Source of the DNA: Arenicellales bacterium
GTDB lineage: Bacteria > Pseudomonadota > Gammaproteobacteria > Arenicellales > JAJDZL01
NCBI GenBank assembly: GCA_965203865.1
Contig: OZ241916.1
Span: 861,548-925,547 of the forward strand
Reading direction: 5' to 3'
DNA length: 64,000 nucleotides
Shown: positions 41,605-52,457 of the stretch, piece by piece
Numbering within the stretch: position 1 is the first letter of the stretch
How the letters are laid out: every line of letters starts with the position of its first letter
Translations under genes and position numbers: made by a program
Notes under the pieces: model-generated
Seen by the model: the letters and a program-made list of their open reading frames with translations, nothing else
The model's database searches: none
Told to the model about the DNA's origin: nothing

Positions 41605-42633
41605 TCAATATCGGTCAATAATCCTTGAATCAGTGAATCGATTTCGTATTACTGATGGTAGAAGTGATTCCATGGCTGGATTAATGCGTTCCAGGAGTTT
41701 CTTCTTGCGAACATACTTCACTTCAAGAATATTATGTTCCTTACTGGCTTCCAGAAGATACTGGTCGCTGGTAATTAGTTCGTCGACCAAATCTCGTTCA
41801 AGTGCGCGGGTGCCAAACCAGAACTCTCCTGTCGCAACCTTGTCAATGTCAACTTTGGGTCTGTTCAAGTGGATGAAATCCTTGAAAAGAGTATGTGTAT
41901 CCTCTATTTCTTCTTTGAATTTTGCTGTGCCTTTTTCAGTCGGAGGGCTAAACATGCCAACTGTTCTTTTGTACTCGCCGGCAGTGAATTCCTGGTATTC
42001 AATGTCATGCTTTTCCAGTACGCGACTCAGGTTGGGGACTTGCGCCAGTACTCCGATTGAACCAACAATAGCAAAAGGCGCAGCAAGTATAGTGTCTGCC
42101 ACGCAGGCCATCAAATATCCCCCGCTTGCAGCTACTTTGTCGACTGTCACAATAAGCCGAATTCCCTTGCTTTTGATGCGACTCAATTGAGATGCAGCCA
42201 GTCCGTAGGCATGCACGGCACCGCCTTGGCTTTCAATTTTTACTACGACTTCATCTGTTGGCTCAGCTACAGTCAGTACAGCAGTAATTTCTTCTCGGAT
42301 TCGGTCGATTTGACTTGCCTGGATGTCGCCATGAAAATTAATGACATAAATGTTTTTTAAACTTTCGTCCTTTGCTTCTTTCTCGGATTTTTTATCTTCC
42401 TTTTTTCGAGACTTTACATTCTCCTTGTATGATTTCTTGGAAAGTACTGTTGAATTTATTGCATCTGCCATTGCCTCGTAGCGTTTGTTCAACTGGTTTA
42501 CTTCAAGATGTTCCTTTTGATGCAACTTTTGCTTGGAAGATATCGCCATTAAAAACAGCAAGGGGATAAAAATGCACAAAACAACAATAATTGTTTTGGC
42601 GAAAAATAATAAAAAATCGAGTAGATATTCCAT
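41605..42633 (-). CDS. sohB: S49 protease SohB
   Basis: N-terminal TM anchor; FHGDIQAS; ESQGGAVHAYGLAASQL; VAASGGY; GSIGV; TAGEYKRT; VATGEFW. Confidence 0.9.
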   Translation of the reverse strand: MEYLLDFLLFFAKTIIVVLCIFIPLLFLMAISSKQKLHQKEHLEVNQLNKRYEAMADAINSTVLSKKSYKENVKSRKKEDKKSEKEAKDESLKNIYVINFHGDIQASQIDRIREEITAVLTVAEPTDEVVVKIESQGGAVHAYGLAASQLSRIKSKGIRLIVTVDKVAASGGYLMACVADTILAAPFAIVGSIGVLAQVPNLSRVLEKHDIEYQEFTAGEYKRTVGMFSPPTEKGTAKFKEEIEDTHTLFKDFIHLNRPKVDIDKVATGEFWFGTRALERDLVDELITSDQYLLEASKEHNILEVKYVRKKKLLERINPAMESLLPSVIRNRFTDSRIIDRY

Positions 42634-42743
42634 TTTGCTGTGATGAGAAAATTTGAAGGAAAATTATAGCAGGTGAATCAAGACTTGTTGCACTGTGTCA
42701 ATGCAAAATTATTTGGGATGCCAATCTAGAAAAGCAGGAATTT

Positions 42744-43151
42744 CTAGAGTAGTCTTCTCATATATTCAGAAGCTAATGCAGTAACTGCGGCACTTGTAAC
42801 TATGTTCTCGAGTTCGTCGAATTGCTGGGCACTTGGAAAATGAATGCTATGCGGTGCAACTAAATGATATTTTAGTGCCAATATCATGGAAATCAATACA
42901 AATAACCACTAATCAAAGAACATGCCTATAACTATTATAAAGGGTTGTCGAATCATACAACGAAACGATCTGAATGAGTATGCTGGCGAGTTTGTTTTCC
43001 CCTTCAATATCCGCTACTGAAAACCTCAGTAGCCGGAACGAACGCCGCAAACCGCCGTTGTTCATGTGCTGATTCGGGCTTTCCTTACTTATAGTTAGAG
43101 GCATGTCAAAGAATTGTGCCTTTTTTCATCTCGTGGCTAGTCAGGAGCCAT
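42744..43151 (-). pseudogene. Possible decayed partner (toxin-like membrane protein) gene of the Panacea antitoxin
   Basis: A frame starting at the ATG overlapping the DUF4065 3' end has 7 internal stops but a clean hydrophobic 3' part (WLFVLISMILALKY...VTSAAVTALASEYMRRLL*). Confidence 0.3.
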
Positions 43152-43530
43152 ACCTTTGGTAAAGTCGGGCATAATGGTCTTCTATCAATTGATCTGAAAT
43201 CACCGGACTTCGACTATGTCCGTTATAAATTAGATCCCATGGTGAGTTTGGTGAATGCGTCAATTGTGAAAGCTGTATTGCCGTACGCTTTCCGTAGATT
43301 TCAAGAGTTTCATCCATTACACTAGATTCGTATTCATCAAATGATTCATCATTCAATCCAGGAAAAACTTCATCCGCGCGTACAGGCTTTGAGCGAAATT
43401 TCTTCACTTTTAAATAAAGCTCTGGGATTACCGGCCCGTAGCGCCATGCCTCAGCATTTTCCCGAATTAGTGGTCGCCCATAAAGACCTAGCATCCAGCC
43501 GTGTGAAATATAGACGAGTTTTATAAGCTT
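43141..43530 (-). pseudogene. Panacea/DUF4065 (SocA-like) antitoxin, 3' fragment
   Basis: KLIKLVYISHGW..AWRYGPVIPELY..QLSQLTH..SPW are hallmark DUF4065 motifs. Confidence 0.88.
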
Positions 43531-44771
43531 GGGAATTATATACATTGATAACCAGACCACTGTATACTGTTCTGCGCAGTGGGCATTCCAATGAATGCTT
43601 TAAGTCTTCCTTCTTCCTGCGCTTCGGGCCGCCCGCCCAAAGTGCCGGTCAACCCGACACGAAGAACATTTATAGCAGCGTTTACATCCCTGTCTTCAGT
43701 ATAGCCACAAGCTTTGCAAAGATAAGTCCTATCGCTTAGTTTTATCTTTTCCTTAGGCTTGCTGCCGCATTTGGAGCAAGTCTGGGATGTAAACTTAGGA
43801 TTGACTTTAGATACGAAGCCACCGGCACTCTCAGCCTTGTAGCTTAGCATCTCATTAAAGTCTCCCCATGTCTGGTCAAGTATTGACCTGTTTAATCCTG
43901 TTTTACAGCTACCGCCAGTAGCTGTCATATTCTTAACTTTCAAGTCTTCCACGTAAAACTTGGAAGTGCAGTCTTTCACTAAACTTGTAGTCAGCTCGTG
44001 CAAGTAGCCTTTGTTTCTTTCCCTTGCCCTCTGCCACTCTTTATTCAAAGACAGAATCTTCTTTTTTCTGCTGTTTGAACCCTTTACAGACTTGGAAACT
44101 TTCTTCTGTAAAGTTCTTAGTTTGGTTCTGTCTACATTCCTTTTAGGAATTTGCACTCCATTGGACAAGGAAATCCTGTTTAACACTCCAGCATCCACTC
44201 CTACAGGAGCTCTTGCATCCTCTACTTGTACATCCGGAAGCTGACAAACCAGTTGTAGCTTAACTCTAATTGGAGTCTTTACTATCCTAAGTATCTTGGC
44301 TTCTCCCTTTAGTTTTCCTTTATACCTGAACTTTCCAATTCCTTTTACCCGAATACAGTTCCAGGAAACTGCCTTTTTTATCTTAAAGTCGCTTGTCTCA
44401 AAAGACTTGACTCCCCTGTTCCTCGACTTGAACCTTGGAAACCCTGGCTTCTCCCCTTTCTTTTCTCTGTCAAAGAATCTTTTGAACGCTTTATCCAGTC
44501 TTCTCAGGCAGGTTCTCTGAGATGAGCAGTGAAACTTCTCAAACCACTCGTCTTCTTGCCTTATTGTTGTTAAGGACTTTTGCTGGTCAAGATAGGAAAT
44601 GCCTATATTCTGCTTCTTGTAGGCATCTATTCTTTCCTGCAAGGCACAGTTCCACAATAGTGTTTCCTGATTCAGAAACTCTTCCAAGTTTCTATGACAC
44701 CCTTTGGAAATCTTTGCAGTGTAGGTATAAGTTCTAATCATGGTAATTGGTTATCATTGTATATAAGTCCC
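43531..44771 (-). mobile_element. Non-autonomous TnpB-carrying element with 24-bp terminal inverted repeats and an 8-bp target-site duplication
   Basis: TIRs GGGAATTATATACATTGATAACCA (43531-43554) and, on the minus strand, GGGACTTATATACAATGATAACCA (44771-44748), 22/24 identical. ATAAGCTT flanks both sides (43523-43530 and 44772-44779). Excision restores the DUF4065 reading frame. Confidence 0.93.
43536..44741 (-). CDS. tnpB: RNA-guided endonuclease TnpB (IS200/IS605 OrfB family)
   Basis: N-terminal HTH region (TYTY...LWNCALQER); PGFPRFK; RuvC-I GVDAG, RuvC-II VEDL, zinc finger CSKC/CKAC, RuvC-III DRDVNAAIN. Confidence 0.93.
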   Translation of the reverse strand: MIRTYTYTAKISKGCHRNLEEFLNQETLLWNCALQERIDAYKKQNIGISYLDQQKSLTTIRQEDEWFEKFHCSSQRTCLRRLDKAFKRFFDREKKGEKPGFPRFKSRNRGVKSFETSDFKIKKAVSWNCIRVKGIGKFRYKGKLKGEAKILRIVKTPIRVKLQLVCQLPDVQVEDARAPVGVDAGVLNRISLSNGVQIPKRNVDRTKLRTLQKKVSKSVKGSNSRKKKILSLNKEWQRARERNKGYLHELTTSLVKDCTSKFYVEDLKVKNMTATGGSCKTGLNRSILDQTWGDFNEMLSYKAESAGGFVSKVNPKFTSQTCSKCGSKPKEKIKLSDRTYLCKACGYTEDRDVNAAINVLRVGLTGTLGGRPEAQEEGRLKAFIGMPTAQNSIQWSGYQCI

Positions 44772-44860
44772 ATAAGCTTCATCGGTGAGAGTGCCATTTT
44801 TCTCTCTTCTGCATGATCAAGCAAATATCTGGCTACTTCAGTACATGGGTGTCCAAACAT
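44772..44860 (-). pseudogene. Panacea/DUF4065 antitoxin, 5' fragment
   Basis: AAGGAG RBS then ATG at 44860: MFGHPCTEVARYLLDHAEERKMALSPMKL, which joins IKLVYISHGW after removal of the insertion. Confidence 0.85.
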
Positions 44861-45128
44861 AGATTATCTCCTTGCTTTTTACCTTATACCGACATTTTTT
44901 GGCAATAATAATGGGTATTCGTCCTATCTATCAGATTTAATTTGTATGGCTAAACAAGAGTGGTTATCACGATACTTATACTCCATTTTTCGAGTAAAGT
45001 GTAAATCACAATTCCTTGTAAGAATCCGCCTGCAAGTTTTCCACTGTATCAACCAAGGTGTCGAAATTTGTATTGATTCAGGTGTCAAACCAAGTAAAGC
45101 GACCTATGAACCAGAAGCAACTTCAAGG

Positions 45129-45563
45129 TCAAAACGGAATATCGGGTACCCAGGTATATCCATCGTCATCTACGATATAAGCCTCTCGAAGTTGATGCGC
45201 ATCTTTGCTGGTAGCCTCTTGTAAAACAAGATAATTCCACTTGCGAGCATTTTCAACGGCAATGTCGGGATTTCGCCCATGCAGGCGAAGCTCAATTCCT
45301 ATTCCGCGTTTTGATGCTTGGGTTGTTTCAATGTAAATTGGGTTTTCTTCGTAGGTATGGTCGGTATGCAGCATCCACTCTGAACCGCAACCTCGTACAA
45401 CAGCAAAATCCGGGTCAGAATATACAACCGAATTTGAAAGTACTCTGGTTTGAAATTCCAGCGCCTTCTCCATGTTCTTGACCAGTAGATTTACTGTCAA
45501 GCCTCTCAGTGAGTGTGCATATTTTGGGGCTGGCATCCATGGGTCGCCTTTTCTGAGTTTCAA
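45129..45563 (-). CDS. VOC/glyoxalase-like family protein
   Basis: NLLVKNMEKALEFQ; RGIGIELRL; HQLREAYIVDDDGYTW. Confidence 0.65.
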   Translation of the reverse strand: MKLRKGDPWMPAPKYAHSLRGLTVNLLVKNMEKALEFQTRVLSNSVVYSDPDFAVVRGCGSEWMLHTDHTYEENPIYIETTQASKRGIGIELRLHGRNPDIAVENARKWNYLVLQEATSKDAHQLREAYIVDDDGYTWVPDIPF

Positions 45564-51476: not shown

Positions 51477-52457
51477 CATGCATCTAAACTGAATTAAGGC
51501 AATCTCGAATTGGCACATGATCGACAGCGGCTTGCAGCAATCGGTCCGGCAATTGAGGTTCCCAGAATCGACGATTGAAGCGAAACACAAATTCGTCAAT
51601 GTATTCCTGAAGGTATCGATGCGACACCCCGTGGAAGGTTCCCGCCAGAAAACTCTTGAAGTTGCTGATGACGATATGAACCTTCGGAAGCCATTCATCC
51701 ACTTTTTCCGGCGGGGTGGATTTGGCTTGGTGGCGATGCGATTCGCCCAGAACTCGCAAGGCATTCAATGCGTCGGTGCGAATTTCTGAATTCGGCGAAA
51801 TTCGCTTGGCAAATTCCCGCACCTGTTCCGAATTCACCTGCTCCACCAGACGAGCCGCCATGAAGCCCATGCCTTTTTCTTGCTGCTCAACGGCGAAAAT
51901 CACCGGCTTTTTGCCCTCGCTCCCGCGACCTCTCTTGCCCGGCTTGCGTCCCCCAACGAAAGCATCGTCCAACTCCACAAGCCCTTCAAGCCAGTAACTT
52001 CGGTCGCGATCCCCCATGGACTGGCGCAAAATCCTCAGCATTCGATAGGCCGTCGGCCAAGACACCCCAATCGTCTTGGAAAGCCGCTGTGCCGAAATCC
52101 CGCCCTTGTCCGTGGCCATCAAGTAAATCGCCGCAAACCATTTGGGCAGCGGCAGACGCGTATGCTCGAATACCGTACCTGCCGTGGGCGAAACTTGACG
52201 ACCGCAATTCGTGCACTCGTGCAAATATCGATGCTTTAGCTGGTAGGACTTGTCGTGACCGCACTTCGGGCAGATGAATCCGTCTTTCCAGCGCCGCCAG
52301 CTCAACTCTTCCAGGCAGGCCTCCTGAGTCGAATACTTTTGGCTCCAGTCGAAAAAATTGGTAGGGTTCTGTTGCATTTGGAAGTTCCTCTCTTGCAGGT
52401 TCAATCAGATCGTTACATGCTATTATATGACAATCCTTAATTTAATTGAGAGGCATG
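51477..52457 (-). mobile_element. IS1595-family insertion sequence (probably ISSod11 group), 981 bp
   Basis: 23-bp imperfect TIRs CATGCATCTAAACTGAATTAAGG / CATGCCTCTCAATTAAATTAAGG (4 mismatches); 8-bp TSD TTTTCAAT at 51469-51476 and 52458-52465. Confidence 0.9.
51484..52404 (-). CDS. IS1595-family DDE transposase
   Basis: Zinc ribbon CPKC/CTNC; TAGTVFEHT; VELDDAFVGG; IRTD; WLPKVHIVISN; YIDEFVFRFNRR. Possible start at the ATG at 52377. Confidence 0.92.
   Translation of the reverse strand: MNLQERNFQMQQNPTNFFDWSQKYSTQEACLEELSWRRWKDGFICPKCGHDKSYQLKHRYLHECTNCGRQVSPTAGTVFEHTRLPLPKWFAAIYLMATDKGGISAQRLSKTIGVSWPTAYRMLRILRQSMGDRDRSYWLEGLVELDDAFVGGRKPGKRGRGSEGKKPVIFAVEQQEKGMGFMAARLVEQVNSEQVREFAKRISPNSEIRTDALNALRVLGESHRHQAKSTPPEKVDEWLPKVHIVISNFKSFLAGTFHGVSHRYLQEYIDEFVFRFNRRFWEPQLPDRLLQAAVDHVPIRDCLNSV

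Follow-up and report, generated by a model that had tools for sequence, protein, structure and literature searches.

The best-described relative of the system reported here is the IS200/IS605 element ISDra2, whose TnpB (structures PDB 8BF8, 8EXA and 8H1J) uses an omegaRNA with a 116-nt scaffold (PMC10097598) and recognises the TAM TTGAT (PMC10097598, PMC13565253). TnpB genes inside DDE transposons with inverted repeats, as well as solo copies, are also a known kind of arrangement (PMC13565253, PMC10691335), and Altae-Tran et al. 2023 (PMC10691335) divide the DDE-associated TnpBs into branches DDE-1 to DDE-6. What TnpB does for such elements is less obvious: DDE excision itself leaves a break at the donor site, so that TnpB is not obviously needed (as argued in PMC13565253). 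In eukaryotes, Fanzor1 and Fanzor2* are carried by TIR transposons, and the TIR has been predicted to contribute to the scaffold of the guide RNA (Yoon et al. 2023, PMC10711439).

The window analysed in this study, a 64,000-nt stretch of an Arenicellales bacterium contig, contains a tnpB-only element of 1241 bp on the minus strand (43531..44771). Its sole ORF is tnpB (43536..44741, 401 aa), and no DDE_Tnp_IS1595 transposase lies inside. The ends are 24-bp TIRs of the IS1595/ISNwi1 type, the left one at 44748..44771 (GGGACTTATATACAATGATAACCA) and the right one at 43531..43554 (coding strand TGGTTATCAATGTATATAATTCCC), identical at 22/24 positions. They are flanked by an exact 8-bp TSD with its left copy at 44772..44779 and its right copy at 43523..43530, which reads AAGCTTAT on the coding strand and opens the predicted guide region; the right flank on this strand is AAGCTTATAAAACTC. 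ISDra2, as an IS200/IS605 element, has hairpin ends and makes no duplication, whereas this element has TIRs and an 8-bp TSD and resides in a genome lacking Y1 TnpA: PF01797 found no match anywhere in the 3.15 Mb, while the controls did match. IS200/IS605 elements, the tnpB-only IS1341 group included, lack both TIRs and a TSD, have hairpin ends and insert 3′ of a motif of 4-5 nt; this element does not fit that description.

IS1595-family transposases (PF12762) are present elsewhere in the genome, and one 2948-bp element that bears such a transposase likewise generates an 8-bp duplication and has repeat tips whose first 12-13 bases, GGGAATTATATA(G), are those of the tnpB elements. The tnpB element thus has both the TIR type, with tips identical over 12 bp, and the TSD length of the IS1595 family. 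From the shared tips, the 8-bp TSD and the lack of an internal transposase it is classified here, on sequence grounds, as a non-autonomous IS1595-type transposon with TnpB as cargo, and the common tips and TSD length suggest that an IS1595 transposase would mobilise it. It may belong to the ISNwi1 subgroup, going by the ISfinder tip consensus. Like transposase-bearing members of the ISNwi1-like group in this genome and in relatives, it has tips GGGnnTTATATA and an AT-rich 8-bp TSD; it differs from them in having no transposase inside, in its cargo of tnpB and a predicted RNA, and in an extra one-sided motif, RTG^A (the caret marks the boundary between flank and TSD), that is missing from the autonomous copies. 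It resembles the DDE-TnpB and solo elements of PMC10691335, where inverted terminal repeats enclose tnpB and the 3′ end of the gene is ≤250 bp from the end of the transposon, and the solo TnpBs of the same source in that these are presumably mobilised in trans. It differs from them in transposon family, as the accessible part of PMC10691335 names IS630 and the review PMC13565253 names ISL2, IS630 and IS1031, with IS1595 absent from both to that extent, and the accessible part of PMC10691335 describes neither a one-sided target motif nor a scaffold model. A literature search found no paper naming IS1595 as a TnpB carrier, nor one reporting a one-sided target motif for such elements.

TnpB is not the only cargo found between tips of this type. 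In the same genome, DNA methyltransferases are the cargo of IS1595-type elements with these tips at G000:C1:2154512-2157459, ~1699135-1701810 and 2134261-2135726 (a transposase with a 502-aa methyltransferase-HNH protein; a transposase with a 472-aa methyltransferase; a methyltransferase only, 1466 bp). Within the window, 7 kb from the tnpB element, a 306-aa IS1595-family transposase (51574-51990, minus strand; PF12762, 96.8 bits) is one of three near-identical genome copies; it probably belongs to a different IS1595 subgroup, because no GGGAATTATATA-type repeats were found around it.

The genome holds 18 full-length copies of the tnpB element at different sites, in three subfamilies, plus three remnants. 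DNA identity among the full-length copies is 79-100% with none identical, the youngest pairs being already 0.4-1% diverged, and 15/18 are flanked by their own 8-bp duplication with repeats matching at 7 or 8 positions. Two family-C elements (G000:C1:1098821-1100148 and 2205086-2206413) have unrelated 8-mers at their two ends, which suggests post-insertion recombination between copies, by inversion or deletion. Across the order as sampled, tnpB elements with the same kind of ends were found in 24/201 genomes, with TnpB proteins only 24-56% identical, and such elements also occur in two Boseongicola MAGs.

In the window, the element has split a SocA/Panacea-domain gene (43141..44860, minus strand; Pfam SocA_Panacea, 5.5e-18), an antitoxin-domain gene destroyed by the insertion and now left as 43141-43530 plus 44772-44860. 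Taking out the element together with one TSD copy restores a SocA/Panacea frame of 157 codons, and an uninterrupted homologue in a genome of the same genus spans the junction contiguously at 73% identity. The N-terminal fragment (44741-44860, minus strand) runs into the left repeat and ends at a TGA that overlaps the tnpB start (ATGA). In this particular copy, tnpB could share the transcription of the host gene and be translationally coupled to it. As a general feature of the elements, translational coupling to an upstream frame was rejected, since the family B TIR holds an in-frame TAG.

The TnpB protein (Pfam Cas12f1-like_TNB, 5.5e-25; OrfB_IS605, 2.2e-10) aligns with the solved ISDra2 TnpB over residues 22-365 with E = 1.1e-39. 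The complete RuvC D-E-D triad is in place (GVDAG, D183; YVEDLK, E265; DRDVNAAINV, D350/D352), as is the C4 zinc finger with both CxxC pairs (CSKCG and CKACG), so the protein has the two features expected of an OMEGA-module nuclease. In 14 copies, diversity over codons 1-355 is 0.13/0.086/0.324 by codon position, which is the usual signature of selection on the protein. These data bear on the idea that TnpB is a passenger, either passive or domesticated (a nuclease dead in practice, or a regulator), and that the 3′ end is conserved for the needs of transposition only. The divergence among the copies, 1-20% with none identical, gives no sign of recent activity and would suit such a passenger; intact catalytic residues and zinc finger, open frames in most copies and the codon-position signature of purifying selection speak against it, and I regard it as highly improbable.

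The last RuvC motif occupies aa 350-359, and the frame continues to aa 401 and a TAA within the right TIR. Since the alignment ends at residue 365, nothing in the solved ISDra2 protein corresponds to the last 36-38 codons of this frame, and here the diversity by codon position is flat (0.126/0.102/0.128 over codons 366-401 in the same 14 copies). Elements of the g2 family end their frame at a TAG located in the 3′ strand of a helix described below as H2; in the family of the window's element the T of this TAG is replaced by C, with a compensating A-to-G change in the partner strand, and the frame extends to the TAA inside the repeat. The flat diversity, together with the g2 stop in H2 and its compensated change, shows that the tail is shaped at the nucleotide level.

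A reading made from the sequence alone had proposed an omegaRNA scaffold at this 3′ end, on the basis of three pairings on the coding (minus) strand. All three exist at the coordinates given for them, but they did not fare equally when related elements were compared. GCATTC-ATTG-GAATGC (43583..43598; hereafter P3) and the long-range pairing of GCGCAG (43617-43622) with CTGCGC (43574-43579; H2, 43574..43622) are conserved and show compensatory changes, whereas CCACTG/CAGTGG (43557-43562 with 43577-43582) overlaps H2, is not kept in families B or g2 and was discarded. Folding agrees with this sorting: the 150-nt stretch reaches -53 kcal/mol (z = -2.8 against dinucleotide shuffles, with 1/200 shuffles as good), and its minimum-energy fold includes the GCAUUC hairpin and the GCGCAG/CUGCGC helix and leaves out CCACUG/CAGUGG. 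Comparison added two further helices, namely H1 (43623..43641; 43636-43641 with 43623-43628), whose GGG(C/A) loop at 43631-43634 is the candidate 5′ strand of a pseudoknot, and H4 (43538..43567), which pairs GTATACA (43561-43567) with TGTATAT (43538-43544) inside the right TIR. Taken together, they outline a candidate omegaRNA scaffold core of ~114 nt (43531..43644, minus strand; from RNAalifold, pair counts and a covariance model), with a possible extension to ~43680 by another hairpin at 43642-43660. An Rfam scan of 42500-45500 (E ≤ 10) returned chance-level matches only and no omegaRNA-type family.

Covariation was assessed on the terminal 110-150 nt of 30 distinct elements. From a plain MAFFT alignment, RNAalifold predicted three helices, with compensatory changes in 12/18 pairs. 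With a cleaner MAFFT alignment of 19 sequences and a hand-written structure, 99% of cells were paired, as opposed to 31-62% when the partners were slid by 1-3 columns; seven pairs had changed on both sides, and 0/500 shuffles attained the observed covariation. A covariance model built from this 19-sequence alignment found 46 instances among the loci searched, and in a model-based alignment of 42 distinct sequences 18/24 pairs had compensatory changes, a figure that leans towards the structure since the alignment is fitted to the model. H2 had compensatory changes in 6/6 pairs, with 96.8% of cells paired, and its strands differ from family to family: GCGCAG/CUGCGC in the family of the window's element, GCACAG/CUGUGC in B, ACGCAG/CUGCGU in g2, UCCGG/CCGGG in C and GCGUCC/GGACGC in L101. 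P3, whose counterpart in g2 is GGAACUGC/GCAGUUCC, was paired in 67% of cells, which understates it, as neither MAFFT nor the model gave one register. Much of the covariation signal stems from a handful of deep family splits, and the independent events are fewer than the cells. The comparative model from homologous 3′ ends, which the sequence-only reading had named as a check, therefore supports a conserved structured scaffold over the 3′ end of tnpB, predicted to extend across the TIR up to the element's final base.

The contribution of the TIR was also visible without the alignment: when 21 sequences were folded independently, every minimum-energy structure closed with a hairpin that takes its 3′ strand from the inner half of the right repeat, while the left repeat has no matching hairpin or partner strand. 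At the outermost tip, UCCC is nearly invariant and could pair with the GGGA loop of H1 as a candidate pseudoknot in 97% of cells, although the window's own copy has the loop GGGC and can form only 3 Watson-Crick pairs. Families with the tip GUCCC carry GGGAC(U) at -105 (4/4) and g2 elements with the tip UUCCC carry GGGAA at -101/-102, and the two classes never cross, which makes this the one covariation between families observed for the candidate pseudoknot.

Counting positions back from the last base of the element allows a comparison with the solved ISDra2 omegaRNA. Stem 1 lies at -116 to -111 with -91 to -86 in ISDra2 and at -111 to -106 with -98 to -93 here (H1), and the 5′ strand of the pseudoknot at -103 to -105 in ISDra2, with the GGG(A/C) loop at -104 to -101 as its candidate counterpart here. 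The long-range stem 2 joins -84 to -81 with -35 to -32 in ISDra2 and -92 to -87 with -48 to -43 here (H2), and in both cases stem 3, here P3, is nested in stem 2. Stem 4 is a hairpin near the 3′ end in ISDra2 and corresponds to H4 (-36 to -30 with -13 to -7), followed by the 3′ strand of the pseudoknot at -5 to -3 in ISDra2, for which the UCCC tip at -4 to -1 is the candidate here. In ISDra2, one unpaired A precedes the guide, and by analogy the near-invariant A at the first TSD base of these elements could correspond to this unpaired -1 A. The two systems therefore share a homologous TnpB and a scaffold, predicted in the present case, of ~115 nt that overlaps a dispensable C-terminal coding region, with the same order of parts at similar distances. 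They differ in that, in the element described here, TIR sequence bound by the transposase provides stem 4 with its 3′ strand and also forms the candidate pseudoknot strand.

This double use of the TIR raises the question of whether the conserved pairings act on DNA instead, for example as a right-end-specific structure bound by the transposase or a host factor. H4 and the tip are indeed TIR sequence and must be transposase-bound. H1, H2 and P3, on the other hand, lie well away from the TIR, 40-110 nt into the element; the conserved G-U pairs occur on the sense strand only and would be C-A mismatches on the opposite strand; the left end has no such hairpin; and the whole layout is that of the ISDra2 omegaRNA. 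A role at the DNA level is thus very unlikely, and an RNA scaffold remains the preferred explanation of the pairings.

If the right repeat is scaffold, the guide should begin at the flank, that is, at the first base of the duplicated target or 1-2 nt into it. With the scaffold ending at 43531 and the ISDra2 layout as a template, the predicted guide region is 43511..43530 (minus strand, AAGCTTATAAAACTCGTCTA), starting at TSD base 1, 2 or 3; the earlier proposal of a flank-derived guide that begins with the duplicated target follows from this layout. The same proposal had also raised a fixed internal guide overlapping the TIR. Here, the scaffold would end at AGAACAGU and the TIR would serve as a guide aimed at transposon ends, for which there is room, as the most conserved block (CUGCGCAGAACAGU) lies ~38 nt away from the end of the element. 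These ~38 nt, however, form a covarying hairpin in every family examined, and the solved ISDra2 omegaRNA has stem 4 and the pseudoknot strand at this position, so that the TIR appears as base-paired scaffold. An internal guide would moreover match the element's own right end in the same sequence context and target its own gene, and would leave the one-sided flank motif without a role. It is hardly credible, and a guide read from the flank is assumed below.

A flank-derived guide poses a problem that had already been recognised from the sequence, namely how a TAM would be guaranteed next to the insertions of an IS1595-type transposase; a relaxed TAM, TAM-biased insertion and a fixed internal guide had been offered as ways out. 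As had been suggested at the time, the sequence 5′ of the TSD was aligned across independent insertions (38 tnpB-element insertions with duplications matching at 7 or 8 positions, 15 from the same genome and 23 from other genomes, with g2 excluded), and a one-sided motif, RTG^AW, emerged. The three bases before the TSD on the tnpB-upstream side are R in 33/38, T in 31/38 and G in 35/38 insertions, and the first two TSD bases are A in 30/38 and A/T in 35/38. TG directly 5′ of the left TSD was found in 28/38 insertions compared to a genomic frequency of 7.2% (P = 2e-24), and in 12/15 of those in the same genome, while the mirrored position on the right side had TG in 1/38 (Fisher 4e-11). The 25 control insertions came from four IS1595 lineages that carry only a transposase, have tips of the same kind and are flanked by perfect duplications; they showed a preference for AT-rich 8-mers, and TG stood in 0/25 of them on the left side and in 2/25 on the right side (Fisher 1e-9). 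At the five g2 sites, (T)GA^T takes the place of RTG^AW. In the window, the motif reads ATG^AA (44778..44782, minus strand; three flank bases and the first two TSD bases).

Two other explanations of the motif were tried and rejected. RTG does not stem from start codons of host genes, as Shine-Dalgarno-like words lie upstream in 3/38 tnpB sites and 3/25 control sites. Nor does the flank provide tnpB with a -35 box: by inspection, R stands at position -3 instead of T and the spacing to any -10-like hexamer in the left TIR is unsuitable, and a promoter scan showed nothing notable.

The motif probably represents the TAM signal needed by the nuclease. The candidate TAM RTGAW has the TGA core of TTGAT, and differs from the ISDra2 arrangement in that it straddles the TSD boundary. 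At an occupied site, the right junction has UUCCC at the motif position and no more than 8 bases match at the left junction, whereas in the empty allele the motif lies directly 5′ of the sequence matched by the predicted flank-derived guide. In silico, the TAM puzzle thereby largely dissolves in favour of TAM-biased insertion sites.

How the motif came to be one-sided is a separate matter: the preference of the transposase may be asymmetric, TnpB may affect insertion, or copies next to a TAM may survive preferentially. The ages of the copies do not separate a bias at insertion from later filtering, because even the youngest pairs are already 0.4-1% diverged. RTG^AW may be an intrinsic asymmetric target preference of the mobilising IS1595 transposase and not a TAM, or coincide with one only by co-adaptation. 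The 1466-bp methyltransferase-only element, which has the same tip, shows GATG^AAATTTTA at one end; the mobilising transposase could itself be asymmetric; and in IS200/IS605 elements the transposase target and the TAM are the same sequence (PMC13565253). Against this stand the mirrored side, where 1/38 defies the palindromic expectation, the four autonomous lineages with the same kind of tips, which select AT-rich 8-mers only (TG 0/25 and 2/25), and the match of the TGA core to the TAM of the closest solved TnpB. DDE transpososomes are two-fold symmetric and normally lead to palindromic target preferences. On balance, a mere transposase preference is unlikely. An active role of TnpB in placing the element, in which TnpB, bound to the TAM or acting via the right-end RNA, biases the site and orientation of DDE insertion, similar to a guide-independent forerunner of Cas12k transposons, or else acts as a strong retention or homing device such that only TAM-adjacent insertions persist, is decidedly unlikely as well. 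Either of these active-TnpB readings, if true, would explain a one-sided motif that is unexpected from a symmetric transposase.

The explanation that I favour, and with reasonable confidence, is that the 3′ end of tnpB encodes a guide-RNA scaffold built in part from the IS1595-type TIR, with a guide read from the flank and RTG(AW) as the TAM. The element would be a non-autonomous IS1595-type cut-and-paste transposon with a TnpB/omegaRNA module as its sole cargo, and transcription through the 3′ end of tnpB would yield an omegaRNA with a ~114-nt scaffold of ISDra2 layout. In this RNA, stem 1 would bear the GGGA-type loop, the long-range stem 2 (GCGCAG/CUGCGC) would enclose stem 3 (the GCAUUC hairpin), the inner half of the right TIR would supply the 3′ strand of stem 4, and UCCC at the TIR tip would pair back to the loop of stem 1 as a pseudoknot. 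The flank would then supply the guide, which would begin with the TSD copy or 1-2 nt inside it, and with RTG(AW) 5′ of the TSD TnpB would recognise the empty allele and neither junction of the occupied site. The TAM would be available because surviving insertions adjoin RTG^AW in one orientation only.

The scaffold model also has matches elsewhere. A 205-bp miniature element outside the window (G000:C1:573155-573359), with degenerate IS1595-type repeats and a remnant of the tnpB 3′ end, matches the model in full (50 bits) and resembles an omegaRNA that stands alone, with no nuclease gene. A second, inverted scaffold match in another genome of the family lies ~1.7 kb from a full tnpB element (L096:3233-3344 and L119:3225-3335); the two loci share a common left flank, and their elements may be nested or paired.

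The nearest parallel to a repeat with two functions is found in the Fanzors, where the TIR likewise enters the predicted scaffold of a TnpB-type nuclease on a non-autonomous cut-and-paste element (PMC10711439). There, the whole TSD enters the scaffold and doubles as the TAM (PMC10711439), whereas the present element is bacterial, its 8-bp TSD varies and the conserved motif lies mostly outside it. The rarity and the workings of TnpB/omegaRNA in bacterial cut-and-paste transposons are an open question (PMC13565253), for which this family provides a concrete case with many natural copies. Its predicted guide-RNA scaffold appears to have absorbed the repeat bound by the transposase, as has been proposed for the eukaryotic Fanzors. 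The one-sided TAM-like motif reduces the relation between landing site and nuclease specificity to a simple bench test, and the family supplies compact pairs of TnpB and scaffold with a predicted short TAM.
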